From a virus, in the IMG/VR virus record IMGVR_UViG_3300035698_012504, positions 1 to 58,693 of that record: a stretch of DNA of 58,693 bases, one strand, 5' to 3'. A program made the position numbers and the translations under genes. Under the pieces are notes generated by a model, which had not been told where the DNA came from, did no database searches, and was given only the letters and a program-made list of their open reading frames with translations. Shown piece after piece: positions 27-43,803 of this stretch. Each line of letters starts with the position of its first letter. Position 1 is the first letter of the stretch.

Positions 27-389
27 ATGTTAGGATTAGACCCATATGTTATGGATCGATTAATTCCTATATTAAAAGATAATTTGTTCTTCAAGTATAT
101 AGTAGATAATATGGATTATAAGGAAATGGGGTGGGTTCATAATTCTATAACGTTTAGTTTCTCTACACTAGATGGCACCCTTGACATACTTATGGGAGTT
201 CATGATGAGGCAATAAGAATTGTAATCTATATGACATATTTGGATACTTTTTTAATAAAAGAAAACAATATACATTATGAAATTAGTATAAAATTCGCTG
301 ATGAGCATATGCCTGAAACAGGATTTACAATTGCTACTAATGGGTATATACATATATTAGACATTATAAGAAAAGGGATATCAATATGA
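27..389 (+). CDS. tandem-array small protein family member (120 aa), tail LDIIRKGISI
   Basis: AGGAGG upstream of the ATG. The stop overlaps the next start as ATGA. Family C-terminal tail present. Confidence 0.85.
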   Translation: MLGLDPYVMDRLIPILKDNLFFKYIVDNMDYKEMGWVHNSITFSFSTLDGTLDILMGVHDEAIRIVIYMTYLDTFLIKENNIHYEISIKFADEHMPETGFTIATNGYIHILDIIRKGISI

Positions 390-808
390 TAATGGATATG
401 ATTGATACTGAAGTTAATAATGGATACCTTATTAGGCGTACATTAAATCAAACCTTAACGAAGAGTCAGATATTTAAATGGATAGCAACATATATAGAGG
501 TTGAATCGACTAGAAGTGTAAAAGTATATACTTCATTTAATAATATAGATATTATATTAACCGGCATGAAAGGACTTCATCACATAACAGTGAGTATTAC
601 TGGGAAAACTTATATAGTCGATAGATATAATCACCCTAGATTTGCACCAGATAAGATTAATCCTATTAATATTATTATGGAGTTTTATTATACAAGCCCC
701 CCTCATAAATTATTTGTTGTTAGAGATAGATGGTTTAAATACGATGTGACCCCTTCTCAACATTCAATAAATTTAACTGATATGTTAATGGGAGGAATCT
801 GTATATGA
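386..808 (+). CDS. tandem-array small protein family member (140 aa), tail DMLMGGICI
   Basis: ATGA overlaps at both ends. Acidic N-terminus MIMDMIDTE. Confidence 0.85.
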   Translation: MIMDMIDTEVNNGYLIRRTLNQTLTKSQIFKWIATYIEVESTRSVKVYTSFNNIDIILTGMKGLHHITVSITGKTYIVDRYNHPRFAPDKINPINIIMEFYYTSPPHKLFVVRDRWFKYDVTPSQHSINLTDMLMGGICI

Positions 809-1116
809 TAGTTGATATGTTGACAATCGATTCATCGATGTTTGTATCCACTATGACAGAACACAGCTATAGTCTATACTTAGATAACTTAATTATATCG
901 TTTAGACCAGATAATCCTAGATATCCCCACCACCTCGTATTATCCCTCTGTTCATATGATTATGACGGAATAGATATAGAATTAATCAAATATGCAAACT
1001 TTCACTATGTTTATGAGGTAGATGTATTTGATAATATTACATTTGAACATGTAAATAATATATGTAAATCTATAATATGTACGTTGGATATTATCAGGAG
1101 AGGGATATCAGTATGA
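805..1116 (+). CDS. tandem-array small protein family member (103 aa), tail LDIIRRGISV
   Basis: ATGA overlaps at both ends. GGGAGGA lies 9 nt upstream of the ATG. Confidence 0.85.
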   Translation: MIVDMLTIDSSMFVSTMTEHSYSLYLDNLIISFRPDNPRYPHHLVLSLCSYDYDGIDIELIKYANFHYVYEVDVFDNITFEHVNNICKSIICTLDIIRRGISV

Positions 1117-1535
1117 TGGGTTATGTCGGACCTATGTCAAAACAAGATAGGAAATATTTAAGCTCTTTCCCACATGATCTAAGAACTAATTTTATAGCAA
1201 GTACGCTAATACGATTTGGATTTAAAAGGAAAACAATTGAAGATATGGATAGGACTGTTTTAAATCTATCTAGTAGTTTTTATGTACCTGGATCAACATA
1301 TAGTAGAATTGTATCGATTCGTATTAATGGTAGAATGTGGAACGGATACACATATAGCCCTATACCTGAAGGGTATCATGCTAGAATAAAAATAACACTT
1401 AATGATGATGTCATGTATATAACGAGGCGAGATAGCCCGTATGTATACATATTTAGTGCTCCTCCGTGGCCTAAGAAAGGAAAAGATAAACAAATTCATT
1501 TGTTAAATATACTAAAGTTAGGAATCTGCATATGA
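1113..1535 (+). CDS. tandem-array small protein family member (140 aa), tail LNILKLGICI
   Basis: Start moved from ORF-track 1077 to ATG 1113, which forms ATGA with the upstream stop. AGGAGAGGGA lies upstream. Confidence 0.8.
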   Translation: MMGYVGPMSKQDRKYLSSFPHDLRTNFIASTLIRFGFKRKTIEDMDRTVLNLSSSFYVPGSTYSRIVSIRINGRMWNGYTYSPIPEGYHARIKITLNDDVMYITRRDSPYVYIFSAPPWPKKGKDKQIHLLNILKLGICI

Positions 1536-1759
1536 ATTACCCATCTATGAGGGAACTAAGTAGATATATAATGGATAATATAGCGATTGATGGATATAGA
1601 ATATCTAGCAATAGTAAAAATGGAATAATAGTTAATATGAATGAAACTAAGATCTCTATTTTAGATAGTGAACATTATTGGATTAGACTAGAGGATTATA
1701 ATAATAAACCTAAAAGAGTCTATCTCTTGGATATATTATCCCAAGGAGTAGTGATATGA
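1532..1759 (+). CDS. tandem-array small protein family member (75 aa), tail LDILSQGVVI
   Basis: ATGA overlaps at both ends. Confidence 0.8.
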   Translation: MNYPSMRELSRYIMDNIAIDGYRISSNSKNGIIVNMNETKISILDSEHYWIRLEDYNNKPKRVYLLDILSQGVVI

Positions 1760-2126
1760 AGCTTGCTCTGTTACGTGCTCTATATAATATTAATTTCACT
1801 GAGCACCTAATGGAGAATGGTGGTAATGATGTAATCTTTAAATATACAAAACCAGAAATTGATGATGATAGTAAACCATGTAGAGTATATGTTAGTGTCA
1901 CTGAGCCAAGCTATACTGGATTAGGTGGGATAAAGTGGCATTGGGACCACCAATTGATAGAGTAGTTGTAGAACTATATCGAGATTGGGATCTATTAAGA
2001 TGTTCGTATATGTCTCTTGTAGGTATGAGTAAATTTGGATATATTTATCAGGTTACAGATGTTGATTTTAAAATCACTAAAGATATATTCATTATGGACG
2101 TCCTAAAGAGAGGAATAGTAATATGA
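1756..2126 (+). pseudogene. tandem-array family member interrupted by a frameshift (1756-1965 plus 1935-2126), tail MDVLKRGIVI
   Basis: The 5' part has an ATGA-coupled start but no family tail. The 3' part has the tail and an ATGA junction but no coupled start. The frames differ by -1 and the joined length is about 124 codons. The -1 frame is open from 1905. Confidence 0.6.
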
Positions 2127-2329
2127 TCTTTGATAACGATAATAAGATACCATTTGAACATCAATCAAGAGTATATGAAGTTTATTTAGATGTCTATGAT
2201 ATGTTTCATGGTGGGCACGCAGTTCATCCCCTAATTATAGCAGGACTCCCATTTCATATTAACCCTTCCCACTTCAACTTTGGAAGAATAGCGAATTGGA
2301 TATATCATACAGGAGGAGTTGTAATATGA
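2123..2329 (+). CDS. tandem-array family, MIFDN subfamily member (68 aa), tail ANWIYHTGGVVI
   Basis: N-terminus MIFDNDNKIPFE. His/Pro-rich centre. ATGA overlaps at both ends. Confidence 0.85.
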   Translation: MIFDNDNKIPFEHQSRVYEVYLDVYDMFHGGHAVHPLIIAGLPFHINPSHFNFGRIANWIYHTGGVVI

Positions 2330-2688
2330 GCGTCCAGCAAAGAGAAGAAGAACTATTCGATTTATTACAACGTTCAGGATTTAAGAAAAGAAGTCATCGC
2401 ACATCTATGATGGATTTTAGAGAAGAATCGTTTGATTTTGGTAACTATGTAGTAATTACTCTAAATGAAAATGGGTATATTGATGTGGAGATAGTAGATA
2501 AATTAGATATAGATAAATCGAGATACTACTATGTTAAAAGAATGGATAAAAGTAGTTTTAAAATGAGAATATATGCGAGTACTTATCCCGTGGCACCAGA
2601 ACGTATATTCGAATTTAAAATAGGAATAGATAAATTAGGAAAATTAATAAATACGTTTGATGTATTTAAACAAGGAGCAATATTATGA
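2326..2688 (+). CDS. tandem-array small protein family member (120 aa), tail FDVFKQGAIL
   Basis: Start moved from 2296 to ATG 2326 (ATGA overlap, AGGAGGAG upstream). Confidence 0.8.
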   Translation: MSVQQREEELFDLLQRSGFKKRSHRTSMMDFREESFDFGNYVVITLNENGYIDVEIVDKLDIDKSRYYYVKRMDKSSFKMRIYASTYPVAPERIFEFKIGIDKLGKLINTFDVFKQGAIL

Positions 2689-2906
2689 TATACATAGATA
2701 CTATGGATCGTTATATAATTAAGAATTATGATGAGTATGTTAGTAAAATACATACAGACATACTTACCACAATCCAACATAAACTTAATAAAGGTTATGA
2801 TGAGTGGACACACTATGAATACTTTCTTAGTCGTCATCTTATAAGATCTATTAATAGCTCGAACATATGTAGTTGAATATTTGCAAAACAAGGAGTTGTG
2901 GTATGA
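2685..2906 (+). pseudogene. tandem-array family member with an in-frame TGA at 2874-2876; the family tail IFAKQGVVV* continues in the same frame
   Basis: The ORF 2685-2876 lacks the tail. Ten codons further on in the same frame come QGVVV and the ATGA junction to the next gene (2903). Confidence 0.6.
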
Positions 2907-3361
2907 CTGAAAGAGGTATAATTAATGTATTAGATTCTTTACAATTCAACAACTCTAAAATATCTGGATCTTTTGCTGCCCCTATTAATGGAAGGGGATT
3001 TGCTCATATGAATCCAGGTCCTCCAACAGCACGATTTACATTCAGAGATAAAAATAGAATATCACTATCAACTACAATTTCAAAACCACAGATGATTGAT
3101 GTAGTATCAAGAAGAACCCATTTACTCGGAGGAATATCAAGACGTGGCCTAGTTGTAGAATGTTGGTTATACATACACTCTGATATAAATGATTATTATC
3201 TTTACTTTGTCGTACCATTTAATGAATCGACATTCACTGTTTATTTCACTCATAAATATAATGAGAAGGATAAAGATCATATTGATAGGGTTGGAACATT
3301 GTTTAGTAGATCAAAACCTATATTCATTCTAGATGTATTGAAGCGAGGAGTCGTGATATGA
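2903..3361 (+). CDS. tandem-array small protein family member (152 aa), tail LDVLKRGVVI
   Basis: Start moved from 2873 to ATG 2903 (CAAGGAG upstream, ATGA motif). Confidence 0.8.
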   Translation: MTERGIINVLDSLQFNNSKISGSFAAPINGRGFAHMNPGPPTARFTFRDKNRISLSTTISKPQMIDVVSRRTHLLGGISRRGLVVECWLYIHSDINDYYLYFVVPFNESTFTVYFTHKYNEKDKDHIDRVGTLFSRSKPIFILDVLKRGVVI

Positions 3362-3687
3362 TGTATACAGATGGATCAGATATGCTATATACATTTACAT
3401 TATCTGACGTAATAACTGGTGTAAAGGGTAGATCGTTTGATTTCATTATAAAAATAGATGAATACCCAGACTTTGTTAACAAAGGGCATACAAGATTAAA
3501 AAAAGTATCTCTTTATTTCTCAGTGTTTGGTAAAACATGTACTATTGATTGTATGTTAAACTCTAAATTCCCAAATATATTCTTATTTAATAATCTCCAT
3601 TATATTGTGTTAGTATATAACAATGGAGTTACTATGCCAACTTCAGTTAACACATTTAATATAATATCTCATGGTATCGTAATATGA
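3358..3687 (+). CDS. tandem-array small protein family member (109 aa), tail FNIISHGIVI
   Basis: ATGA overlaps at both ends. N-terminus MMYTDGSD. Confidence 0.85.
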   Translation: MMYTDGSDMLYTFTLSDVITGVKGRSFDFIIKIDEYPDFVNKGHTRLKKVSLYFSVFGKTCTIDCMLNSKFPNIFLFNNLHYIVLVYNNGVTMPTSVNTFNIISHGIVI

Positions 3688-3965
3688 TTGTAGATACTAC
3701 TGATATGAAAGAGCTAGGTATTGGTGTATGTATCTCAGAAGGGTTATGGGTAGATACATTTCACACCAAAGATATAATGCTAACTTTATACCGTTATATA
3801 GATGGAGGATCAATTACATCCATAACTAGAGATCAGGCTGAATTGGTCAGACATCATGGTAGAGTATATACATTTGATTTATTTGATACGCATATTATAT
3901 CATCTGCTCATCATAATGGATTAATTACTCCACTCAACATGATAAAGAGAGGGATTGTAATATGA
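3684..3965 (+). CDS. tandem-array small protein family member (93 aa), tail LNMIKRGIVI
   Basis: ATGA overlaps at both ends. N-terminus MIVDTTDM. Confidence 0.85.
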   Translation: MIVDTTDMKELGIGVCISEGLWVDTFHTKDIMLTLYRYIDGGSITSITRDQAELVRHHGRVYTFDLFDTHIISSAHHNGLITPLNMIKRGIVI

Positions 3966-4189
3966 TATTTGACAACGGCAACGAGTTATTATTTGAAGAT
4001 TGTCTACCAGTGTATGATGTGTATTTTAAAATATCTGATGTTTTTGGTATACCCCTCCGTATTAAATTTCCCCTTCCAAAAAATAAATATGGAAATCCCA
4101 AAGTTTTATATTACCTTCCGACGCTCCCTAGAATACATATCTCAATAATATTTAAGTTGATATATTATAGTAAAGGAATTAATATATGA
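3962..4189 (+). CDS. tandem-array family, MIFDN subfamily member (75 aa), tail LIYYSKGINI
   Basis: N-terminus MIFDNGNELLFEDC. Pro-rich centre. ATGA overlaps at both ends. Confidence 0.85.
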   Translation: MIFDNGNELLFEDCLPVYDVYFKISDVFGIPLRIKFPLPKNKYGNPKVLYYLPTLPRIHISIIFKLIYYSKGINI

Positions 4190-4488
4190 TATATGAAGAT
4201 ACTACAGATGCCCTAATGGGGGTGGAATATAATCCCGCAGAAGAATGTATTAAACTTAGCTATGGTAAGGAATCATTTTCACATGTAGATGTTGCTCTTT
4301 ATAGTGATGGTGGATTCGGATTTAGAATATCTAGATACCATTATATGAATATGTTGTCGTGTGTTACAGTAAAACGATCATACCGACAAAGGTTCGAATA
4401 TATATTTAAGACTGGATGCCATGAGCAATTTAGAAAGAAGCGATATGTTAATCTGATGGATATCTTCAACAGAGGAGTTCCTATATAG
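4186..4488 (+). CDS. tandem-array small protein family member (100 aa), tail MDIFNRGVPI
   Basis: ATGA overlap at the start. N-terminus MIYEDTTD. The TAG stop overlaps the next GTG start (TAGTG). Confidence 0.85.
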   Translation: MIYEDTTDALMGVEYNPAEECIKLSYGKESFSHVDVALYSDGGFGFRISRYHYMNMLSCVTVKRSYRQRFEYIFKTGCHEQFRKKRYVNLMDIFNRGVPI

Positions 4489-4712
4489 TGTATGTAGATG
4501 TAAAAGTTAATATGATGCTTAGTGCCGTAATGTACAAAGATGCTGGAGATTTTCGCGACTTGTGTGTTCATAATTATACTAGACCACTAGCCATTAAACC
4601 AATTAGATATAGTGGATATGGTAGGGATATGGGTTATACAGCATACATTAGAGGTTTTAGATTTAAGGACGTATTTAACCAAGTAATGAAGAGAGGAATA
4701 GTATGGAAATAG
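4488..4712 (+). CDS. tandem-array small protein family member (74 aa), tail FNQVMKRGIVWK
   Basis: GTG start overlaps the upstream TAG. The junction reads ATGG instead of ATGA, so the tail runs 2 codons past the thyX ATG. Confidence 0.7.
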   Translation: MYVDVKVNMMLSAVMYKDAGDFRDLCVHNYTRPLAIKPIRYSGYGRDMGYTAYIRGFRFKDVFNQVMKRGIVWK

Positions 4713-5485
4713 TAGAACCGAAAGTATTTTTAATAGCAGAAACTAAATTAGATAATGAGGGCCTTCTTGAATATCTCAAGGATCTTAACGTATTAGATTA
4801 TAGCTGGAGTGCCCCGTCTGATTCAGAGGCGCTATGTGAGATGATGGGAAGATTGTGTTATAGATCATTCAAGCCTGGTCTTAATCCCAATGTTACAAAA
4901 GTAAGGACCGGTAATGATGTATACTTAAAGAACATTATAAACACTGGGCATGGGTCAGTTTTAGAACATGCTAGTGTAAGTTTTATATTCAAAGACGTAT
5001 CTCGAGTATTCACGCATGAGCTTGTTCGACATAGATCAGGGGTAGCTATATCTCAAGAGTCTCTTAGATTCGTTAGGTTAGATAAGCTTAGTGCGTATGT
5101 CCCGATACAGATAGAAGAGAATGAAGAAGCAATGTCTTTGTTCATGGATACGTTTGATAAACTTGAAGAGGTGCAAAAACAACTCGCTGACATTTACGAT
5201 ATAGAGAACACTGATGACTTTGCTAGGAAGAAAGAATTAACCTCTGCATTCAGGAGAGTTGCCCCTATTGGATTAGCAACTACCATAGGGTGGACATGTA
5301 ATATGCGAGCACTAAGACACATAATCGAATTAAGAACTAGCCCACATGCAGAGATAGAACTTAGAGTAGTATTCGCAAAAGTATTTGATATAGTGAAAGA
5401 TAAATACCCTAATATATTTGGAGATTATAAAGTAGAGATGGTAGATGGTATACCGTGGGTGCATACTACGGAGGAGAAGATCTAA
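4703..5485 (+). CDS. thyX: flavin-dependent thymidylate synthase ThyX
   Basis: ThyX signature RHRSGVAISQESLR plus GHGSVLEH. AGAGAGGAA RBS lies inside the upstream tail codons. Confidence 0.9.
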   Translation: MEIVEPKVFLIAETKLDNEGLLEYLKDLNVLDYSWSAPSDSEALCEMMGRLCYRSFKPGLNPNVTKVRTGNDVYLKNIINTGHGSVLEHASVSFIFKDVSRVFTHELVRHRSGVAISQESLRFVRLDKLSAYVPIQIEENEEAMSLFMDTFDKLEEVQKQLADIYDIENTDDFARKKELTSAFRRVAPIGLATTIGWTCNMRALRHIIELRTSPHAEIELRVVFAKVFDIVKDKYPNIFGDYKVEMVDGIPWVHTTEEKI

Positions 5486-5501
5486 CATAAGGTAGTGAAT
5501 T

Positions 5502-5818
5502 ATGATATATGTTACTGGATGTATAAACTCAACGTTTTCTGAAAAGTTGATACATGAATCATTTAATAACATCTTAATATTATTAGACTTCATAGATGAT
5601 GATGATTATATGAATTATATCCTTGAGTATGGTATTAAGATTTATCCAATTTGTCCCATTCGATTTGAACTCTATTTAATTATAGACACTCCCCTCAGAT
5701 AGATATTCATTTCACACAAAGTCCAAAAATATCTGTAGTGTATACTAGTAAAGGTATACGTGTACCAGTCATTAGCTTTCATTTAATTGATATATTTAAG
5801 AGAGGGATAGCCATATAA
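5502..5818 (+). pseudogene. tandem-array family member interrupted by a frameshift (5502-5702 plus 5669-5818), tail IDIFKRGIAI
   Basis: The N-terminus MIYVTG is in one frame. The -1 frame is open from 5669 and ends with the family tail FKRGIAI* at 5816-5818. Confidence 0.55.
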
Positions 5819-5828
5819 AGGAGATAGT

Positions 5829-6077
5829 ATGCACATAGATGAAGACGGATTATACAATGAAGTTGCTCGTTATATTAGAACAAGGAATGATTTATCATTA
5901 GGACTTACTGTTATGAATATAACAAATGGTAAATTATTAATAGTAGTAGTTAATGACCCATCTAATAGAGGAACGCGGTTTAATCATGTAGATAATCTTA
6001 AAGAAATACTACCCAAAGTAATTCATTATTTCATATTAGTGTATATGGATGTTATGAAGGAAGGAATAAATATCTAA
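5829..6077 (+). CDS. tandem-array small protein family member (82 aa), tail MDVMKEGINI
   Basis: AAAGGAG RBS. The stop overlaps the next start as TAATG. Confidence 0.8.
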   Translation: MHIDEDGLYNEVARYIRTRNDLSLGLTVMNITNGKLLIVVVNDPSNRGTRFNHVDNLKEILPKVIHYFILVYMDVMKEGINI

Positions 6078-6451
6078 TGGATATGTATATGAGAACTCCT
6101 TTAATAAGACCATGTAGAGAAGAATATGATCATAGTTTTAGTACGAGAATATGTCACGCATGGATAAGAACTAAAACTAATTCATTTATTCACTTCCAAG
6201 TATCTGTTTCTCCAACTAACTCTACAGACAAATTCAAGCTGATGATGTTTTTGACAACAGATGATAAAATCAATGAAATAGGGACACGGGCATGGGTAGA
6301 AGAAAAACAAATATTAAGTATAGGAGCATCTAGGATGTTTGAATTATACTATGGGACCAGACTACAAAATCCTCTTATCATTCAGGGAATTTTTAAAAAA
6401 GGGGTATGTATCAATTCGAATGATTTTTTAAACGGAGGAATCGATATATGA
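6077..6451 (+). CDS. tandem-array small protein family member (124 aa), tail DFLNGGIDI
   Basis: TAATG overlap at the start and ATGA overlap at the end. Confidence 0.8.
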   Translation: MDMYMRTPLIRPCREEYDHSFSTRICHAWIRTKTNSFIHFQVSVSPTNSTDKFKLMMFLTTDDKINEIGTRAWVEEKQILSIGASRMFELYYGTRLQNPLIIQGIFKKGVCINSNDFLNGGIDI

Positions 6452-6810
6452 TATTTATATCTCCACCAGAAGATGGATTATATTCAGACTCAATTGTTAG
6501 GATAGAGCTTGTACCACACTCATCTAATCGCAGATATAAATTTATTGCTAATATTCCATCTAAACTAGATGATGTTTTATGTTCAATTTACGTCAGAAAA
6601 AAATCCCCATGGTGCCGAGACGATATAATAATAATATCATTCAAGCATCATAGATGTTATTTTCAAATATCTACTTTTAGTGGGTATGAACCAACTAAAG
6701 TATTTACTAAACCTAAAGTACAAACACTAATAACTAAACAGGGATGCAAATCAGAAGAAACTTATAGGGATATGGGTAGAATGTTTAGATGTGGAGGAAT
6801 CTCAATATGA
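6448..6810 (+). CDS. tandem-array small protein family member (120 aa), tail MFRCGGISI
   Basis: ATGA overlaps at both ends. ACGGAGGA upstream. Confidence 0.85.
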   Translation: MIFISPPEDGLYSDSIVRIELVPHSSNRRYKFIANIPSKLDDVLCSIYVRKKSPWCRDDIIIISFKHHRCYFQISTFSGYEPTKVFTKPKVQTLITKQGCKSEETYRDMGRMFRCGGISI

Positions 6811-7037
6811 TATTCGACAACGGTAATAAATTGTTATTTAAAGATTGCTCGTTAGTATATGACTATCTTAAATTATATAATTACATTCACCTTCACCCTC
6901 ACCTTCACCCTCACCTTCACCTTCACCCTCACCCTCACCCTCACCTTCGCCCTCACTCCCGCCTTCCCCTTCACCCTCACCTTCAACCCGAAAAATTATT
7001 TAACTGGGTGTATAATAAAGGAGGAGTTGTGATATGA
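6807..7037 (+). CDS. MIFDN subfamily member with a (His-Leu/His-Pro)n repeat core (76 aa), tail FNWVYNKGGVVI
   Basis: Start moved from 6789 to ATG 6807 (ATGA overlap). Near-identical paralogue at 8556-8786. Confidence 0.85.
   Translation: MIFDNGNKLLFKDCSLVYDYLKLYNYIHLHPHLHPHLHLHPHPHPHLRPHSRLPLHPHLQPEKLFNWVYNKGGVVI
6888..6983 (+). repeat. in-frame hexanucleotide repeat CACCYT (16 units, degenerating at the 3' end) encoding HLHPHLHP...
   Basis: Read directly: cac ctt cac cct cac ctt cac cct ... inside CDS 6807-7037. Confidence 0.9.
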
Positions 7038-7432
7038 TATTTGATACGACGTGTGAATATAACATGTATCAGTATGCATATGGAATGACTACACGTAAGA
7101 ATACAGTGACTAGAGAACATACTAGAATTACTATCCGTTCTCTTAGAGGTTATTGTTTCACATTCGAAAATCTAAGACATCCTCCGAAAGAATATGAAGG
7201 GCATTTTATATCGAGGGACGTTGAAGAGTTTTTAATAATTTATAAAGTAGATAGGATTACAGATGTTTATTACGATTTTATAAGAATAGGGAAAGTAGTG
7301 AGAGGGAAGAATCATTTAGTACGAAATGGAAAGAGAGAAATAATAATAACAACTGGTGTAAATCATACTACATCTGTTCCCAATGTATGTACAATTATAT
7401 TGGCGCTTTGTAGGAAAGGAACAGTCATATGA
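7034..7432 (+). CDS. tandem-array small protein family member (132 aa), tail ILALCRKGTVI
   Basis: ATGA overlaps at both ends. AAAGGAGGAG upstream. Confidence 0.85.
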   Translation: MIFDTTCEYNMYQYAYGMTTRKNTVTREHTRITIRSLRGYCFTFENLRHPPKEYEGHFISRDVEEFLIIYKVDRITDVYYDFIRIGKVVRGKNHLVRNGKREIIITTGVNHTTSVPNVCTIILALCRKGTVI

Positions 7433-7647
7433 TATTTGATAATGATAATAAAATGTTGATCGGAGATCCTACTAAAGCTTATAATACATATTGTTATATT
7501 AATACTCACACATGGGCAATTCAATATCTTAGTATGCATCTTCATACTAAATATCTTAATCTTACTCTTTTCCCACATTCTCGATTCCATCCTAGATTAG
7601 GAACCACATACAAATGGATAATTGAAAATAAAGGGGTCGTGATATGA
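7429..7647 (+). CDS. MIFDN subfamily member (72 aa), tail KWIIENKGVVI
   Basis: N-terminus MIFDNDNKMLIGD. His-rich centre. ATGA overlaps at both ends. Confidence 0.85.
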   Translation: MIFDNDNKMLIGDPTKAYNTYCYINTHTWAIQYLSMHLHTKYLNLTLFPHSRFHPRLGTTYKWIIENKGVVI

Positions 7648-8006
7648 TATTTGAATCGGTTAACATTGATTTGTTTTGGAGAGATGGATTACATTTGAGA
7701 ACATTAAAACATGGTTATACCCACTTCTTTAGAGAAACTTACGTTGATAAAATATTTATGCATGATACATTTATAGGAGATTTATTACTCGAATGTATCC
7801 TTGTCAACCATATAGATTATATAAGAATACGAATTCCAACATTTCCATATAGATCCATGACATATAAATTTGATATGGGTACCGAGATACTCATTCGATT
7901 TGGATCTGGTAATATATTCTGTACGCAGACAAGTAAAAAAGAAGAAAAAATTAAGTGGTTTCAATTTGGAACTTTAGATATCATGACTAGAGGGGTAGTT
8001 ATATGA
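7644..8006 (+). CDS. tandem-array small protein family member (120 aa), tail LDIMTRGVVI
   Basis: ATGA overlaps at both ends. The N-terminus MIFESV is shared with the member at 9960. Confidence 0.85.
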   Translation: MIFESVNIDLFWRDGLHLRTLKHGYTHFFRETYVDKIFMHDTFIGDLLLECILVNHIDYIRIRIPTFPYRSMTYKFDMGTEILIRFGSGNIFCTQTSKKEEKIKWFQFGTLDIMTRGVVI

Positions 8007-8251
8007 TTTATGTATATGATGCATCAGATTCATTACAAGGTATAAGATTAGATGATATTGAATTTTATATATCATCGGATGCAGTATGTGATATGTGTAA
8101 GAGAACAGATATTATGTGTGATAATCAATGTGCTATTTACTTTAATTCATGGCCATTTACAGAGGTGACCAAAGAGTTTTATGTTCCACCACGACCAACC
8201 ATCCCTCTTATGTATAATTGGGTGAGGAGACAGATAGGAGCTGTTGTATGA
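8003..8251 (+). CDS. tandem-array small protein family member (82 aa), tail YNWVRRQIGAVV
   Basis: ATGA overlaps at both ends. The NW tail resembles the MIFDN subfamily. Confidence 0.8.
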   Translation: MIYVYDASDSLQGIRLDDIEFYISSDAVCDMCKRTDIMCDNQCAIYFNSWPFTEVTKEFYVPPRPTIPLMYNWVRRQIGAVV

Positions 8252-8559
8252 TATATTTTACAAATGACACCCAGGGCGGGATGCAACAACATAATATAGA
8301 TGTCTACGTTAAAGATGTGTTACAGTTTTATAGACAAATCTATGATTTTGAACCTTACTATAATATACTAGATCCTATATTAAAGTATGCCCCAATATGT
8401 AGATATACTAGAGATGCTATATTATTTACACAAGAGGTATCCCCTGGTCTTTTTGGGGTTGTGATTAAAGAAGAACATCAAGAATTTCATGGAGTTAAAG
8501 TTACATTGTCTTTTATATGTGGATGGGTAATGCATCAACAACAAGGAGTAATTATATGA
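8248..8559 (+). CDS. tandem-array small protein family member (103 aa), tail VMHQQQGVII
   Basis: Start moved from 8218 to ATG 8248 (ATGA overlap, TAGGAG upstream). Confidence 0.8.
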   Translation: MIYFTNDTQGGMQQHNIDVYVKDVLQFYRQIYDFEPYYNILDPILKYAPICRYTRDAILFTQEVSPGLFGVVIKEEHQEFHGVKVTLSFICGWVMHQQQGVII

Positions 8560-8786
8560 TGTTTGATAACGGTAATAAATTGTTATTTAAAGATTGCTCG
8601 TTAGTATATGACTATCTTAAATTATATGATTACATTCACCTTCACCTTCACCTTCACCCTCACCTTCACCCTCACCTTCACCTTCTCCCTCACCTTCTCC
8701 CTCACCCCCGCCTTTCCCTTCACCCTCACCTTCAACCCGAAAAATTATTTAACTGGGTGTATAATAGAGGAGGAGTAATAATATAA
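8556..8786 (+). CDS. MIFDN subfamily member with a (His-Leu/His-Pro)n repeat core (76 aa), tail FNWVYNRGGVII
   Basis: Start moved from 8517 to ATG 8556 (ATGA overlap). Near-identical to 6807-7037. Confidence 0.85.
   Translation: MMFDNGNKLLFKDCSLVYDYLKLYDYIHLHLHLHPHLHPHLHLLPHLLPHPRLSLHPHLQPEKLFNWVYNRGGVII
8637..8732 (+). repeat. in-frame hexanucleotide repeat CACCYT (second copy)
   Basis: cac ctt cac ctt cac ctt cac cct ... Same length and register as 6888-6983. Confidence 0.9.
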
Positions 8787-9139
8787 TGTATGTAGATTGT
8801 ATGGATAAGGATATTTATCCAGAAGCCATTTAATTAGGATGTTCAAATACATATGATAAGAGTGGAGATACATGCGATCTAATGTTTTGCAACTTCAGTG
8901 AAAAACATCCATATGAATTTCTTATGAAATTAGGAATATCTGATATAAGAATAAAAATATCATATCCAGTTGGAGAGCGAAGAGTAGTTAATTTAATGAT
9001 ACTTGGACTAAAGAGCGGTGATGGAATATATGTAAAGTTCAGCGCACTGAAGACAATAACAATTATGTCTGAAGATGGGGAACGCAAATGGAATGATTAC
9101 ATGGGTTGGTTTTTACAGCAAGGTATATATATTAAATAG
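8786..9139 (+). pseudogene. tandem-array family member with an in-frame TAA at 8831-8833, tail WFLQQGIYIK
   Basis: The TAATG-coupled start gives MYVDCMDKDIYPEAI*. The same frame then continues without further stops into ORF 8882-9139. Total length is 118 codons, typical of the family. Confidence 0.55.
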
Positions 9140-9182
9140 TGACAGAAGGAATCTATTTCACACAACCAAAAAGGAGAGAAGT

Positions 9183-9692
9183 GTGAAGAATATTCATTGG
9201 CCCAAGGCGTGCATCTATATTTTTCTTTTACTGTTTTTATTACTTGCTAATGGGGAAATTGTAGGCGAGTTGAAAAGACCTATAATAGAATCCCAATTGA
9301 GTGCTGCGATAACAATTCCAGTTGTTATATTAGGTTTAAGTCAGAGCATATTCTTGGGATGGCTCATCGGGGCCATCGTCTGCTCATCTATAGGATTTAT
9401 GAATAATCCAATTGAACGTGTAATTGAAGAATTTGATAAAAAAGGAATACGAGCATATTATACAAATATGATATCTTTTTACGGGCTCATTATATTAACA
9501 CCATATAATTTATTTCTGTACTTTTGGCCAGTAGACGCAACTACTACGTTTATATTTGGAAACATTATGTTTTGGGCTGTATCTAGTATTATAATTTATA
9601 AGAATCTATGGGAGAACGTGAAGATTGACAACTTGGTTAAGGAGTGGTTCTTATGCAAGCCCTATCAGATATGTTTAAAATCTCAAAGCTAG
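9183..9692 (+). CDS. multi-pass membrane protein (169 aa) embedded in the array
   Basis: GTG start 9183 preceded by AAAAGGAGAG. Several hydrophobic segments (IYIFLLLFLLLA, ITIPVVILGLSQSIFLGWLIGAIV, GLIILTPYNLFLYFW, IMFWAVSSIIIY). ORF-track start 9075 rejected. Confidence 0.65.
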   Translation: MKNIHWPKACIYIFLLLFLLLANGEIVGELKRPIIESQLSAAITIPVVILGLSQSIFLGWLIGAIVCSSIGFMNNPIERVIEEFDKKGIRAYYTNMISFYGLIILTPYNLFLYFWPVDATTTFIFGNIMFWAVSSIIIYKNLWENVKIDNLVKEWFLCKPYQICLKSQS

Positions 9693-9949
9693 CAGTCGCT
9701 GTATTCATTCTAATAAATGTACTACATGTATTGATGTTTGTTGTAGCTATACCTATAGTAGTTATGTTGTACACTAAACTTAAGCTTATGGGAACTATCC
9801 CAGAGGATGGGATTATACCACTTATAGTATTATTTGGGGGTGGTGCTACTGTTGGCTTAGCATTTTCGTCTATGAAAAAGAAAATTTTAGAGTGTGTGGT
9901 ACCTGAATCTATGCATAATGAAAATAACCCGATAGTGGATGAACTATAA
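9653..9949 (+). CDS. small membrane protein (98 aa), two predicted TM helices
   Basis: ATG 9653 lies 8 nt after AAGGAG. Hydrophobic stretches LAVAVFILINVLHVLMFVVAIPIVVML and IIPLIVLFGGGATVGLAF. Confidence 0.65.
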   Translation: MQALSDMFKISKLAVAVFILINVLHVLMFVVAIPIVVMLYTKLKLMGTIPEDGIIPLIVLFGGGATVGLAFSSMKKKILECVVPESMHNENNPIVDEL

Positions 9950-9959
9950 GGATAAATCC

Positions 9960-10289
9960 ATGATATTTGAATCTGTTAAATCTATTAGCCCATTTAATAG
10001 TAGTAATATAACTAAATACCCATTTGGAGAATCTTTAGTAACATGTCAAGTAGATTATAATCTTAGAAAGAAGTTTAGGATAGGGATAACTGTAATAAAT
10101 CATAACACATATTATAAAGAAAAGGTAATTGTGATTTCCTATTTCCAAACAGATGGTAAGATTAGAAGTGCTGAAATAGGGCCTATACAAAAATCATCAT
10201 TTAGATCCTATTTTACCACTAAAATTATTACACATGGTGAAATCATTAATGCTTTTCTTAAACTGACGGGTAATGGAATAAGTATATGA
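9960..10289 (+). CDS. tandem-array small protein family member (109 aa), tail FLKLTGNGISI
   Basis: Start moved from 9939 to ATG 9960 (MIFESV, as in member 7644). ATGA overlap at the 3' end. Confidence 0.8.
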   Translation: MIFESVKSISPFNSSNITKYPFGESLVTCQVDYNLRKKFRIGITVINHNTYYKEKVIVISYFQTDGKIRSAEIGPIQKSSFRSYFTTKIITHGEIINAFLKLTGNGISI

Positions 10290-10611
10290 TAGTAGATGGG
10301 TTAATCATGGGATCCAACTCATCAGAAGTTAGACTTCAAAAAATGATAATATCTGGTAGCCTCAAACCAGGACAAGAATATATATCTATTATTGATCTTA
10401 CAAAAAAAGAGTAGTATTTTTCATTAGATTTTATGGTGCGCTGGTCTCAGGGCCATTTGATCCACATCAATCCTATATCTCGGTGAGCAGATACATAGAG
10501 ATCGTAGATGTAGACGGTGGATTTAAATTAAAATATATACGAGAAAAATTTAAAACACTATTGATTGGAAATCTATACATTATGATATCGAAACGAGGGA
10601 TTCTAATATAA
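10286..10611 (+). pseudogene. last array member, split at an A7 tract: 10286-10414 (42 codons) plus the -1 frame 10396-10611 ending in the family tail YIMISKRGILI
   Basis: ATGA-coupled start MIVDGL. The 0-frame stops at TAG 10412. The -1 frame is open from 10396 and carries the tail. The joined length is about 108 codons. Confidence 0.6.
10402..10408 (+). other. A AAA AAA slippery heptamer / homopolymer (candidate -1 frameshift or indel site)
   Basis: The 0-frame reads aca aaa aaa gag tag. Phasing fits X XXY YYZ, with a 0-frame stop 1 codon downstream. Confidence 0.5.
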
Positions 10612-10621
10612 AGGAGAGAAA

Positions 10622-11548
10622 ATGACAGGCCGTAATGTAGATATCGCGGAACTATTATCTAGAGTAAAATCAACACTCTCTACTAATGTAGATGAGACTA
10701 TTGACATTCCTACCATTGCTGAACCAGAACCACCGAGGGCAAAGAAGTCTACAATTTCTAGAATTAAAGATAGTGGGTTATCCATAATATTAAATCCAAA
10801 GAATATATTGGGTCGATATAGAGTTAGACCAAATCATAGATTGTCTGCTTTGGGAGTAGATGCCGAGGATATACCATCTGTTAATAAATTTGAAAGAATA
10901 GATAGTATTTTTAGAAATGATAATGAGCACGATAGAATTGATATTGAGCTACTTCAATTAAAGATGGATCTCGCAGCAGGTACAGTAAAAGCAGTTGAAC
11001 CCAAATCATCAGAGAAGGTGATATATTTATCCCCTACTGTCCCTAGTGAACTTGATAGCTCATTATACTCATATGATGATCAAGAAGATCAATTAATGGA
11101 ATTTTCAAAATACTATTGCGAATGCGCCATTGAGAATGGATGGAAGATATTATTAAATACATCAAGTGCTGATCCAATAATATGGAGAAAACTTAGAGAT
11201 ATGTTTGGAGATAATATAATCCTAGCAGATGGTAATAGTCTGCGTCAAAGTGTAGTAGATAATGGATGTAAAATATTATTCATTGCAGGAGGAAGTACAG
11301 GAGCAGTTAACGATATTGAACGGATATATGATGAATGGAATACATATCAGTGTGGAAGCACAATTATATATCATGCCGTTTCATTTGGCGGAGTATATGA
11401 TGTGAATGGCGAAATAATTTATTCTCTTGGAGGAGAAGGAGTAGAATATATAAGGGACATTACAGATTCTCGTCATAGATCTCCAATGAGTAGAGCTATT
11501 ATGAGTAAGTTTTTTGAATTTGTCACAGAAAGATACTCTAGGTTTTAG
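10622..11548 (+). CDS. hypothetical protein (308 aa)
   Basis: AAAGGAGAG RBS. Long ORF with no recognisable motif. Confidence 0.75.
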   Translation: MTGRNVDIAELLSRVKSTLSTNVDETIDIPTIAEPEPPRAKKSTISRIKDSGLSIILNPKNILGRYRVRPNHRLSALGVDAEDIPSVNKFERIDSIFRNDNEHDRIDIELLQLKMDLAAGTVKAVEPKSSEKVIYLSPTVPSELDSSLYSYDDQEDQLMEFSKYYCECAIENGWKILLNTSSADPIIWRKLRDMFGDNIILADGNSLRQSVVDNGCKILFIAGGSTGAVNDIERIYDEWNTYQCGSTIIYHAVSFGGVYDVNGEIIYSLGGEGVEYIRDITDSRHRSPMSRAIMSKFFEFVTERYSRF

Positions 11549-40572: not shown

Positions 40573-43500
40573 ATGACAAAAGTTGACATGAGTGATTGGG
40601 TTTTTCCAATCAGGGAAAAGTTTAATTTGACAGAGAATTTTTTAGATCAATATACAAACGAGCAACCTAATTGGGGACCAGTTGGAGCTATTACATATAA
40701 AAGAACGTATAGTCGATATATTGAAAAAGAAGATAGATATGAAGAATTTTGGGAGACTCTCAAACGAGTAGTGGAAGGATGTTATACAATTCAACTAAAT
40801 CATTGTAAAAATTTAAGATTGTATTGGAATGCACATAAAGCACAGAAATCTGCTCAAAAAATGTTTGAGTTGATGTGGAATTTTAAATTTCTTCCTCCAG
40901 GGAGAATGTTGTGGACCCTTGGAGAAGATGTTGTTTGGAAAAAAGGAGTAGCTGTTTTATTAAATTGTGGATTTTGTTCCACTGAAGATCTACATTATGA
41001 TTTTAGTGGACCTTTTTGTTGGTTAATGGACGTTGCTTTATTGGGGGTAGGGTGCGGATTCGATCTAAAAGGGGCAGGAAAAGTTAAAATTCAAGAACCT
41101 AAGGTTGGAGATTATGTTTTTACTATAGATGATAGTAGAGAAGGTTGGAGAGATGCTGTGGAAGTAGTATTAAACTCTTATGTTCATAAATCAAAAATGC
41201 CCAGAGAATTTGATTTTAGTAAAATAAGACCTAACGGAAGTTTTATAAAAACATTTGGAGGCATTGCTCCCGGACCAGGTCCATTAAAATTATGTATAGA
41301 AGAGATAAAACTGGTTCTTAATAAATGTGTAGATAAATATATTACATCTGTAAATATAGTTGATATTTTCAATATAGTTGGGAAATGTGTAGTAAGCGGT
41401 GGACAAAGAAGGTCTAGTGAAATAGCAATAGGAGAATATGATGATATTGATTTTTTGAATATGAAAAATCCTGAGAAATATGAAAAGGAATTAAAGGATT
41501 GGAGATGGAATTCAAACAATTCAGTATTTGCTGAAGTTGGTGCAGATTATACACAATTAACCAAGCACATTATTAATAACGGTGAACCAGGAATAGTGTA
41601 TTTAGATAATATGAGAAAGTATGGGAGGATAAAAGATGGAGAGAAATGGGAAGATGAGGGAGTTTGTGGATTAAATCCCTGTGCTGAAATGTCACTATCA
41701 AAATATGAAATGTGTTTATTGTGTGAAACATTTCCAGCTAATCATGAAAACGAAGAAGAATTTTTAGAAACTCTTAAATATGCTTATCTTTTAGCTAAAA
41801 GTGTTACATTAGTACCATCTCATGATGAACGCACAAATCAAGTTATGCTTAGAAATAGAAGAATTGGGTTATCTATGTCAGGAATAACAGATGCTATTTA
41901 TAAATTTGGTAGACGTAGGTTTCTTAATGAGTTTTGTGATTCTGGATATAATAATATTAGAAAACTGGATAAATTATATTCTAGGTGGTTATGTGTACCG
42001 AAAAGTATAAAAGTAACTACGACAAAACCGAGTGGTTGTAGACCGGGTAGATCGTTAACTTCGACAGATAGAGGGATTTTATCTCTAGATGAATTATTAG
42101 AAGAACATCCTGAAGATTTGGAGTGGAACAACGATCACAGTGATAGTTATGTATACCAGAAAAATAGTAAAAATAAAATATTAAGAACATATAGAAATAG
42201 TACTTCTAAAATAATTAAAATTAAAATGAACTACAATTTAGATTTTGAATGCACCCCGAATCATATGGTGTTTGTTAGTGAACATATGAATGCTAGTAGT
42301 GAAAAAGGAGGATATAAGAGAATAGACGTCAACAAATGGATATGTGCCAATGATGTTCGAGCTGGCGATATTATTCATATTAGTATGAATTCTTATAGAA
42401 AAAATATTTGTTCAAAACTATCCCATTCAGCAATACCAGATACTTTTATTGGTGCTCGTGGAAATATTATAACTCAACCTGAATATATGAATAATGATCT
42501 TGCTTGGATTATAGGATATTTATATGGAGACGGTTGTTTGAGTAGACATAAATTTAGAACTAGATTTATAGATGAGAATAAATATAATCTGGAAAAAGCA
42601 AAAAAAATAATATATGATTTATTTGGATTAGACTCTAATATAAAACCTGCAAGTCAAGATAGAAACGCGTTTGTGCTTGAAATTGGGTCTCGGCATCTTT
42701 GGGACTTTTGGAATATTAATGGAATAACTAAATATGATGAACAGGGCAATATATCGGTAATTCCAAGAATTGTAAGAGAATCATCTAAAGAAAATATTTT
42801 AGCATTTATTTCGGGATTAATTGATTCGGATGGTTGTGTATTTGTTCGTGACGGCGATGTGGGAATATGTATTTCAACCGCCTATGATAATTTTGCAAAA
42901 AATATACAAGAAGTTGGATTTTCTGTTGGATTATGTTTTGGAAGATCTTTGAATACAGAAGGGGAGAACAAACAAGAAATTAAACATATATGGAATTTAA
43001 CATTAAATTCCCACACAGATATTAATTCTCTCCATGTATTATTAAAAACATCCAATAAATTAATAAAAATAAATGACATGCGAAATCCACCACATGATAT
43101 ATCATTTAAGTGTCTGACTGAATCTCAAAATGTTTTAATTTTAGGTAAAGTAGTAAGTGTACATGAATTAGAAGGGTATGAAGAAACGTATGATTTAGAA
43201 GTCGATAAAGATCATTGGTATTATTCCGGAGGTATAAAAAGTCATAATACTGTATCATTATTACCAGGAAGTAATCCGGGTATTCATTTTCCACACTCAG
43301 AATATTATATTCGAAGAATAGAATTTCAAAAAAACTCTCCTTTTATTAAACCACTAGAAATTGCCGGATATAAAAAAGAGCAGTCTTATTATAAAAAAAA
43401 TTCGTGGATTTTTGAATTTCCAATAAGAACTAAAAATTTCTTTAAATCCAAGAGAGATATTACTATATGGGAACAAATGGCTCTTCACGCAGATATACAA

Positions 43501-43803
43501 CACTATTGGTCTGATAATGGTGTATCACAGACTGTAACATTTAACGAAAATGAATCTAATTCGATTAAAGATGTGTTAGAAGTATATGAAGACAAAATAA
43601 AAGCTGTATCATTTTTACCTCTTGATGTGAAATCATATAAACAAATGCCATATGAAGAAATTACAAAAGAAAAATATGAATTATATATATCAACCCTAAA
43701 ACCTTTAAAATTATCGAAGATAAAAATGACTAAAGAAGAAGAGATAGAATCAAAAGAAACGCTAAAATTCTGCGATAATGGTAGTTGTGAAATTAAAAAA
43801 TAG
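40573..43803 (+). CDS. ribonucleotide reductase catalytic subunit (NrdJ-like; class not resolvable by eye) interrupted by an intein
   Basis: Active-site GLNPCAE, YKRTYSR, and TTKPSG|..|TVSLLPG re-joined across the intein. C-terminal Cys pair CDNGSC. Confidence 0.8.
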   Translation: MTKVDMSDWVFPIREKFNLTENFLDQYTNEQPNWGPVGAITYKRTYSRYIEKEDRYEEFWETLKRVVEGCYTIQLNHCKNLRLYWNAHKAQKSAQKMFELMWNFKFLPPGRMLWTLGEDVVWKKGVAVLLNCGFCSTEDLHYDFSGPFCWLMDVALLGVGCGFDLKGAGKVKIQEPKVGDYVFTIDDSREGWRDAVEVVLNSYVHKSKMPREFDFSKIRPNGSFIKTFGGIAPGPGPLKLCIEEIKLVLNKCVDKYITSVNIVDIFNIVGKCVVSGGQRRSSEIAIGEYDDIDFLNMKNPEKYEKELKDWRWNSNNSVFAEVGADYTQLTKHIINNGEPGIVYLDNMRKYGRIKDGEKWEDEGVCGLNPCAEMSLSKYEMCLLCETFPANHENEEEFLETLKYAYLLAKSVTLVPSHDERTNQVMLRNRRIGLSMSGITDAIYKFGRRRFLNEFCDSGYNNIRKLDKLYSRWLCVPKSIKVTTTKPSGCRPGRSLTSTDRGILSLDELLEEHPEDLEWNNDHSDSYVYQKNSKNKILRTYRNSTSKIIKIKMNYNLDFECTPNHMVFVSEHMNASSEKGGYKRIDVNKWICANDVRAGDIIHISMNSYRKNICSKLSHSAIPDTFIGARGNIITQPEYMNNDLAWIIGYLYGDGCLSRHKFRTRFIDENKYNLEKAKKIIYDLFGLDSNIKPASQDRNAFVLEIGSRHLWDFWNINGITKYDEQGNISVIPRIVRESSKENILAFISGLIDSDGCVFVRDGDVGICISTAYDNFAKNIQEVGFSVGLCFGRSLNTEGENKQEIKHIWNLTLNSHTDINSLHVLLKTSNKLIKINDMRNPPHDISFKCLTESQNVLILGKVVSVHELEGYEETYDLEVDKDHWYYSGGIKSHNTVSLLPGSNPGIHFPHSEYYIRRIEFQKNSPFIKPLEIAGYKKEQSYYKKNSWIFEFPIRTKNFFKSKRDITIWEQMALHADIQHYWSDNGVSQTVTFNENESNSIKDVLEVYEDKIKAVSFLPLDVKSYKQMPYEEITKEKYELYISTLKPLKLSKIKMTKEEEIESKETLKFCDNGSCEIKK
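42037..43248 (+). mobile_element. intein (404 aa) with a LAGLIDADG homing-endonuclease domain
   Basis: Starts with Cys (CRPGRSL..) and ends SHN with +1 Thr. Block B TPNH. Two LAGLIDADG motifs, LAWIIGYLYGDGCL and LAFISGLIDSDGCV. In frame, 1212 nt. Confidence 0.85.

Follow-up and report, generated by a model that had tools for sequence, protein, structure and literature searches.

The DNA considered here is a stretch of 58,693 nucleotides (nt) from a virus (IMG/VR virus record IMGVR_UViG_3300035698_012504), and the whole of this stretch is referred to below as the window. The source is an uncultured, rather large tailed phage. Near the beginning of the window lies a tandem array of small open reading frames (ORFs) whose products share a short C-terminal tail, and in which the stop codon of one gene mostly overlaps the start codon of the next as ATGA. 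The array comprises about 33 small genes, 29 of which have intact tails. It reaches approximately 1 kb upstream of the window, where three of its tail-bearing genes (L002 1415-2375; L002 is the coordinate label for sequence reaching upstream of window position 1) and two additional ATGA junctions (L002 1699 and 2040) are found. It is a lineage-specific tandem set in the nucleotide-metabolism/replication arm of the phage. The parts of the array are listed in Table 1.

ATGA occurs at 22 of the 33 array junctions; in the other 48 kb of the window, only 3 of 54 junctions have it (Fisher p = 1.1e-9). This corresponds to 67% of the junctions versus about 6% elsewhere in the genome, a 10-fold enrichment. 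TGA is the rarest stop codon outside the array (5/55), and the ending G-[IVAT]-x-[IVL] is absent from all 55 outside genes. A first-pass annotation of the window had listed 22 ATGA gene junctions and three of the TAATG or TAGTG type. All 22 positions read ATGA, and 21 of them are genuine 4-nt stop/start overlaps between called ORFs; at 2903, the start shares nucleotides with the stop of a relic tail of 10 codons (IFAKQGVVV and a stop) and not that of a called ORF. The three 1-nt overlaps are present as well (TAGTG at 4486-4490, TAATG at 6075-6079 and 8784-8788), the last of them opening only a 15-codon ORF. The ATGA junctions at 1756 and 10286 open genes that are split by frameshifts. Additionally, there is a second junction type with two copies (5816-5831 and 10609-10624), in which the tail is followed by TAA, a stand-alone AAGGAG, and an ATG located 11 nt past the stop.

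Shared ends and divergent bodies

What the array proteins have in common is located at their ends. The C-terminal motif, derived from 29 tails, covers 13 residues and reads I(-13)-x-x-[LWF](-10)-[DN]-[IV]-h-[KR]-x-G(-4)-[IV]-x-I(-1), and the N-terminal motif is M-I-[FVY]-[DE]. The first-pass annotation had explained the N-termini by the A of TGA, which forces the second codon of the next gene to start with A. This explanation holds for the class of the second residue but does not extend to the conservation beyond the forced A. Ile2 is found in 15 of the 22 ATGA starts, where a frequency of 0.225 is expected given an A-initial codon (p = 6e-6); position 3 is F, V, Y, or M in 19 of the 22 (p = 2e-12), and D or E is present at positions 4-5 in 14 of the 22.

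The regions between these ends are very diverse. An alignment of 27 members has a mean column identity of 12%, and only Met1 and the tail Gly are invariant. BLASTP on the cores detected relatedness only within subfamily A (2123, 3962, 6807, 7429, and 8556), and a leave-one-out profile test based on hidden Markov models added only two weak links, g27 (z 4.3) and g4186 (z 2.7). Homology of gene bodies across the family was not detectable by these two approaches outside subfamily A, g27, and g4186. The "family" of the first-pass annotation can therefore be kept for the common termini but not for the bodies; it appears to be defined by its ends alone, and the bodies between them appear unalignable. 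A shared h-x-h-x-h-Y strand, which was an impression gained by eye, was not supported statistically by the same core tests. The AlphaFold2 model from a single sequence had a predicted local distance difference test score (pLDDT) of 30, and with the 27 paralogues supplied as an alignment, the pLDDT was 57 and the predicted template modelling score (pTM) was 0.34. This low-confidence model hints that the LDIIRK part of the tail may be helical.

Relatives were sought broadly. No family match above noise was obtained in Pfam, PHROGs, NCBIfam, or PDB sequences, and the family profile returned only this phage's own members, both from 5.8e9 proteins and in an exhaustive comparison with 1.84e9 representative proteins. 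Rfam covariance models gave no match at the gathering score in the whole window. Junction DNA patterns matched 95 loci in viral, metagenome, and genome contig collections, all of them single chance matches, with no tail-ORF array among them. A scan of viral contigs with thyX, the flavin-dependent thymidylate synthase gene that is embedded in the array, revealed no related phage, and hence no orthologous array; a phage collection searched at the DNA level with the window also gave no matches.

Two layers of constraint at the junctions

According to the first-pass annotation, the tail of each protein and the initiation signal of the next gene are the same nucleotides. This is borne out by a composite signal, A-GGR-R, whose distance from the ATG is fixed. 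Codon -5 stands for 9 different residues, yet 27 of the 29 tails have A as its third base (background 0.39, p = 1.6e-9). The codon of the tail Gly is GGR in the same proportion of tails, 27/29 (background 0.64, p = 3e-4), and GG stands exactly 11 nt before the ATG in all 22 overlapping junctions, invariant at -14/-13. It is followed by R at -11 and then by ATATGA; the terminal codon is ATA, GTA, or TTA in 28/29 tails. The other genes of the window have AGGAG-like Shine-Dalgarno (SD) sequences, in which GG is mostly located 8-11 nt upstream of the start codon. The mean predicted energy of the anti-SD duplex is -7.3 kcal/mol for the embedded SDs versus -5.8 kcal/mol for those of stand-alone genes.

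The nucleotide information per junction position separated this SD/start layer from a peptide layer. Nucleotide information peaks at the third-position A(-15), GG, R(-12), and ATATGA. In the peptide layer, conservation has a 3-nt periodicity back to residue -13, and it concerns first and second codon positions (T at -10, -25, -31, and -40; GA/AA at -29/-28). Third positions other than those of the SD and start hold approximately 0-0.4 bit, so that synonymous codons vary freely. The tail is intact in two members whose next gene has its own SD past the stop (10611 and L002 2375), and the four members inside the window that lack an ATGA end all retain their terminal Ile. Two layers of constraint are thus present, a nucleotide one at the SD and start and an amino-acid one along the tail and N-terminus, and the earlier proposal of selection at both levels is upheld by the bias at codon -5 and the GGR codon on the RNA side and by the 3-nt periodic conservation to -13 on the protein side. 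That proposal had also named upstream residues that a ribosome-binding site (RBS) cannot explain. Such conservation does extend to -13; the [KR] at -5, however, contrary to that proposal, is better explained by the SD than by the protein; codon -5 varies in its residue yet ends in A. We infer that the tail peptide also has a separate role as part of the protein.

The junctions are also the places where the array appears to be rearranged. Genes 6807-7037 and 8556-8786, which lie 1.7 kb apart and are 94% identical, represent one gene copied exactly from ATG to stop, and their upstream flanks are unrelated. Nearly all direct-repeat families reported by a repeat finder fall on junctions, and pairs of junctions are identical in register over stretches of up to 16 nt (mean 7.6 versus 2.9 in controls). 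These observations suggest that junction microhomology mediates gene-precise gain and loss. They would also fit a different explanation, in which the junction is purely an RNA or DNA element, either an RBS with its start or a recombination site joining unrelated cassettes, and the tail peptide is functionless. Bodies without detectable homology are what unrelated cassettes would have, and the relic tail at 2877-2906 is still intact past a premature stop. Nevertheless, the codon-register conservation (second-position T, first- and second-position D/N, free third positions) continues to 25 nt upstream of the SD, and the mean junction identity of 49% over 50 nt is too low for ordinary homologous recombination; both argue against a pure recombination site. 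The repeat finder detected no local inverted repeats or attC-like hairpins at the junctions, junction folding is no more stable than that of internal sequence, and no Rfam family matches. A purely nucleic-acid element is therefore unlikely.

It is quite unlikely, too, that the tail is kept only for protein function, with the likeness to an SD arising as a by-product of codon preference in an AT-rich genome and each gene being initiated independently. GGA is indeed the commonest Gly codon (0.46), AAA and AGA dominate among Lys and Arg codons, and both the two tails that cannot serve as the next gene's SD and the periodic conservation to -13 would be expected on this account. It does not explain why the residues at codon -5 vary (they include G, Q, L, H, E, I, and N) while the third base remains A, why GGR exceeds its background, why the distance of GG from the ATG is fixed and matches the SD position of other phage genes, or why ATGA is so enriched over the rest of the genome. 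Finally, it is very improbable that the junctions are alike only through shared ancestry, by recent tandem duplication or gene conversion and without any particular selection on the tail: this tandem, lineage-specific array holds paralogue pairs (the adjacent L002 1699-2043 and 2040-2375 at 33% identity, g27/g805, and subfamily A) and the one recent duplicate at 94%, but most bodies have diverged beyond detection by BLAST or leave-one-out profiles while the termini are still recognisable, which means that the termini are under much stronger purifying selection, and gene conversion would homogenise the third positions that are observed to be randomised.

Breaks in the array and its surroundings

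Table 1. Parts of the array and features at its junctions and breaks (window coordinates).
Feature	Position	Strand	Description
Array segment 1	27..4712	+	16 small ORFs of 63-152 aa joined by ATGA; starts at 27, 386, 805, 1113, 1532, 1756/1935 (split), 2123, 2326, 2685, 2903, 3358, 3684, 3962, 4186, 4488
Frameshift site	1935..1965	+	31-nt overlap of ORF 1756-1965 (tail absent) and ORF 1935-2126 (tail MDVLKRGIVI)
Interrupted tail	2874..2906	+	in-frame TGA at 2874-2876, at the conserved Leu(-10) of gene 2685, then IFAKQGVVV-stop
TAGTG junction	4486..4490	+	1-nt overlap, GTG start
thyX (flavin-dependent thymidylate synthase)	4703..5485	+	embedded in array, 10-nt overlap
Relic-tail junction	5792..5831	+	IFKRGIAI-stop (5792-5818), TAA, stand-alone AAGGAG, ATG of gene 5829; repeat family D16; same variant at 10585-10624
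Array segment 2	5829..8786	+	10 intact ORFs with one TAATG and 8 ATGA junctions; starts at 5829, 6077, 6448, 6807, 7034, 7429, 7644, 8003, 8248, 8556
Subfamily-A gene	6807..7037	+	His-(Leu/Pro) repeat encoded by (TTCACC)n; gene-precise duplicate of 8556-8786
Example junction	7002..7048	+	..N-W-V-Y-N-K-G-G-V-V-I-stop, Shine-Dalgarno AAGGAGGA, 8-nt spacer, ATGA, M-I-F-D-T
Second His-(Leu/Pro) repeat gene	8556..8786	+	94% nt identity to 6807-7037; ends TAATG
Degraded member	8785..9139	+	15-codon ORF (MYVDC..), then ORF 8882-9139 in another frame, variant tail WFLQQGIYIK-stop
Array segment 3	9960..10611	+	intact 9960-10289 (tail GNGISI, ATGA at 10286), then a split member

The array is not a continuous series of intact genes. 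Its longest intact runs are 5829-8786 (10 genes), 2903 to thyX (7), and 27-1965 (6). The array is interrupted by two frameshift-split genes (1756/1935 and 10286/10483), two in-frame TGAs (2874 and L002 1795), thyX, and four non-overlapping gaps. In segment 1, the C-terminal tail is present in every ORF except 1756 and 2685. The frame change at 1935..1965 is the same in five independent assemblies, and 1756/1935 is one family gene split by a frameshift that breaks the chain. A programmed frameshift at this site was considered and rejected, as a slippery heptamer is absent. The split member of segment 3 consists of 10286-10414 and 10483-10611, ends in the tail MISKRGILI and a stop, and is followed by a stand-alone SD for gene 10622. 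Degraded stretches lie at 5702-5829 and 8785-9139. The frameshift-split or relic members (1756-2126, 10286-10611, 8785-9139, and 5702-5818) are identical in every independent assembly, and they are for this reason regarded as fixed pseudogenes and not as sequencing errors. An intact gene, 7644-8006, is carried by eight contigs; the seven that were compared, from at least five samples, are all 100% identical to the window.

At both in-frame TGAs (2874-2876 and L002 1795-1797), the stop is followed by ATA, and an intact homologous frame continues. In an alignment with the adjacent paralogue, the stop at L002 1795-1797 falls opposite an Arg, and the homology continues across it (E = 1e-13). These codons are either fresh nonsense mutations or leaky stops. 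The reading of TGA as a sense codon was rejected, since the genes for ribonucleotide reductase and thyX have no in-frame TGA and family conservation stops exactly at TGA.

The ATG of thyX sits within a modified tail (KRGIVWK and a stop), 8 nt after GGA. The best protein matches of its product have 63-68% identity, and those with names are cellular (Candidatus Hydrogenedentota). This affinity may be a clue to the host or to horizontal acquisition; an assignment of the host from it is uncertain given the 31% GC of the phage. Between 9139 and 9960, the array is interrupted by two overlapping ORFs of 205 and 101 aa (9075-9949). Their long hydrophobic stretches suggest small membrane proteins, and the family termini are missing from them.

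The two His-(Leu/Pro) genes each encode 76 aa with approximately 16 dipeptide repeats from a (TTCACC)n hexanucleotide array. Their copies differ by 12 nonsynonymous and 4 synonymous changes, mostly Pro/Leu exchanges within the repeat. Both genes are omitted from the public gene calls for the contig.

Upstream of the array, directly before its first gene (L002 1415), there is a strong, GC-rich hairpin resembling an intrinsic terminator (L002 1307-1345, approximately 1 kb before window position 1; 17 bp with 8 GC pairs, followed by a T-run). The transcription unit of the array probably begins there. No strong + strand terminator was found within the array, and a scan for sigma-70 promoters gave fewer matches than shuffled sequences. 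We infer that the array is one transcript that begins after the terminator upstream of the window. The in-frame codon-usage scores of the family ORFs are those of the window's other small genes.

The window is contained in a metagenomic contig of 74.8 kb, and identical copies are present in at least five other assemblies; the source samples include ERZ27315536, JGI 3300023257 and 3300022890, SRR5581654, and SRR7528472. Every gene in it is on the + strand, and no tRNA gene was found in it. The nucleotide-metabolism genes are thyX and a class II ribonucleotide reductase with an intein; a peptidyl-tRNA hydrolase, glycosyltransferases, and an ATP-grasp enzyme are also encoded, together with a T4-type clamp loader, a primase, and an HNH homing endonuclease. 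The intein of the class II (B12-dependent) ribonucleotide reductase (40573-43803) includes a LAGLIDADG homing-endonuclease domain. At 46574-48415 lies the gene for a 613-aa protein with a DUF7487 repeat, which matches a PHROGs entry annotated as HNH/homing endonuclease (E = 6e-152).

Probable coupling of translation and possible roles of the tail

Taken together, the observations are probably best explained by a tandem array of tail-sharing genes with dual-coded junctions, which are likely to be translated by termination-reinitiation in blocks. The last six codons of each unit double as the RBS of the next. Its SD is built from the purine-rich codon ending in A, the GGR of Gly, and the R of the Ile/Val codon, and lies 7-8 nt upstream of the ATG, which takes its A from the last codon, ATA, and its TG from the stop codon TGA. 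On reaching this TGA, a terminating ribosome would already be positioned on the next start, and the SD could hold the 30S subunit there. The units are likely translated either by such termination-reinitiation or by an unmasking of the RBS that depends on upstream translation, and a coupled block may include as many as about 10 genes. Reinitiation is probably supplemented by de novo initiation at each SD, which is likely at every junction because the embedded SDs are on average stronger than the stand-alone ones. The first-pass annotation had envisaged more than 20 serially coupled cistrons tied to a single upstream initiation event. This is not supported, as the longest unbroken run has about 10 genes and each junction has a strong SD; with a de novo top-up at every junction, stoichiometry is unlikely to hang on one initiation event.

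Several points weigh against this explanation. The chain is broken at 1965/1935, 2876/2903, 4712-5829, 8786-9960, and 10414/10483, and since five or more members have the look of pseudogenes, some of the junctions cannot be functional. Coupling of translation is plausible from the anatomy of the junctions. The embedded SDs are strong enough for independent initiation, and if reinitiation at successive junctions were less than 100% efficient, expression would die out along a long chain. Neither the invariant Gly nor the terminal Ile can be assigned cleanly to one level of constraint, because nearly every tail precedes a start and there are only two natural controls; additionally, no orthologues were found for a cross-species comparison of synonymous rates. 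The pairing probability of the RBS is 0.57 at family junctions, equal to that of internal coding sequence (0.57), while stand-alone starts are more open (0.45, p = 1e-4); this difference fits coupling as an indirect hint, and it could partly reflect the composition of coding versus intergenic sequence.

Termination-reinitiation coupling is classic in phage and ribosomal-protein operons, and the mechanism of ATGA with an intragenic SD is textbook. Experiments in E. coli and H. volcanii established strict coupling at ATGA/TGATG overlaps, to which the intragenic SD contributed to a variable extent (Huber et al. 2019, PMC6728339). Like those gene pairs, the array has co-directional genes with a 4-nt ATGA or a 1-nt overlap, an SD inside the upstream coding sequence at normal spacing, and an RBS that is not structurally open. 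Unlike them, its overlap and SD belong to a peptide motif common to about 30 tandem paralogues, and whereas coupling was measured in those pairs, in the array it is a prediction from the sequence. What is new is a large array of ORFans that share only a terminal module, which is at once a peptide and an RBS.

The distribution of this module resembles that of a known protein tag. The internal proteins of T-even phages are diverse anti-restriction proteins that have only a short capsid targeting sequence in common (PMC3012670). The array is likewise a phage locus of highly diverse small proteins with only a short conserved terminal peptide, and its turnover is rapid, with lineage-specific members. 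However, the T4 capsid targeting sequence, of approximately 10 residues, is N-terminal and is cut by the prohead protease, whereas the main motif of the array consists of 13 C-terminal residues, with a 4-residue N-terminal motif in addition. The array proteins have no N-terminal tag of such a length with a prohead-protease site at its end; their N-terminus is conserved only as M-I-[FVY]-[DE]. There is no sequence similarity to the T4 internal proteins, and the array is placed amid genes for nucleotide metabolism and replication and not amid head genes.

Dense runs of small ORFans on one strand near replication and nucleotide-metabolism genes are found in the early regions of T4 and in the host-takeover module of SPO1. 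Such hyperplastic or host-takeover regions have many short overlaps, pseudogenes, and changes in copy number. The array shares all these features, but the genes of those regions are unrelated and are not known to share a terminal motif. Gene shuffling in T4 is linked to promoter-stem-loop repeats and not to a coding junction. Integron-like attC sites are also unlike the array junctions, which have no local inverted repeats and are coding, with 3-nt periodicity. As a lead only, the tail [KR]-x-G-[IV]-x-I-COOH can be compared with the ClpX C-motif-2 (MuA-like ..RRKKAI-COOH) and with class II PDZ ligands (hydrophobic-x-hydrophobic-COOH), in that basic residues are followed by a short hydrophobic C-terminus; the tail is longer than these motifs, with its invariant Gly and an upstream helix-like segment.

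A rather unlikely but specific proposal can be made from these comparisons. The tail and the M-I-F-D N-terminus may jointly serve as an address tag common to about 30 otherwise unrelated small effectors, with the codons of the tag co-opted as an RBS; the array would then be a rapidly diversifying library, and the module would provide microhomology for the gene-precise gain and loss of cassettes, of which 6807/8556 is an instance. By analogy with the T4 capsid targeting sequence or the cargo-loading peptides of encapsulins, the tag could be a signal for virion loading or ejection, or it could be recognised by a protease or unfoldase.

The junctions are a clean natural case in which the constraint of an SD and start and that of amino acids can be separated position by position within six codons. 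For annotation, the junction signature allows split, stop-interrupted, and low-complexity members to be recovered. That only the termini are shared suggests a partner or address which many different small proteins have in common. Should the tail turn out to serve in targeting or recognition, the array would amount to a compact phage effector library with a portable tag.

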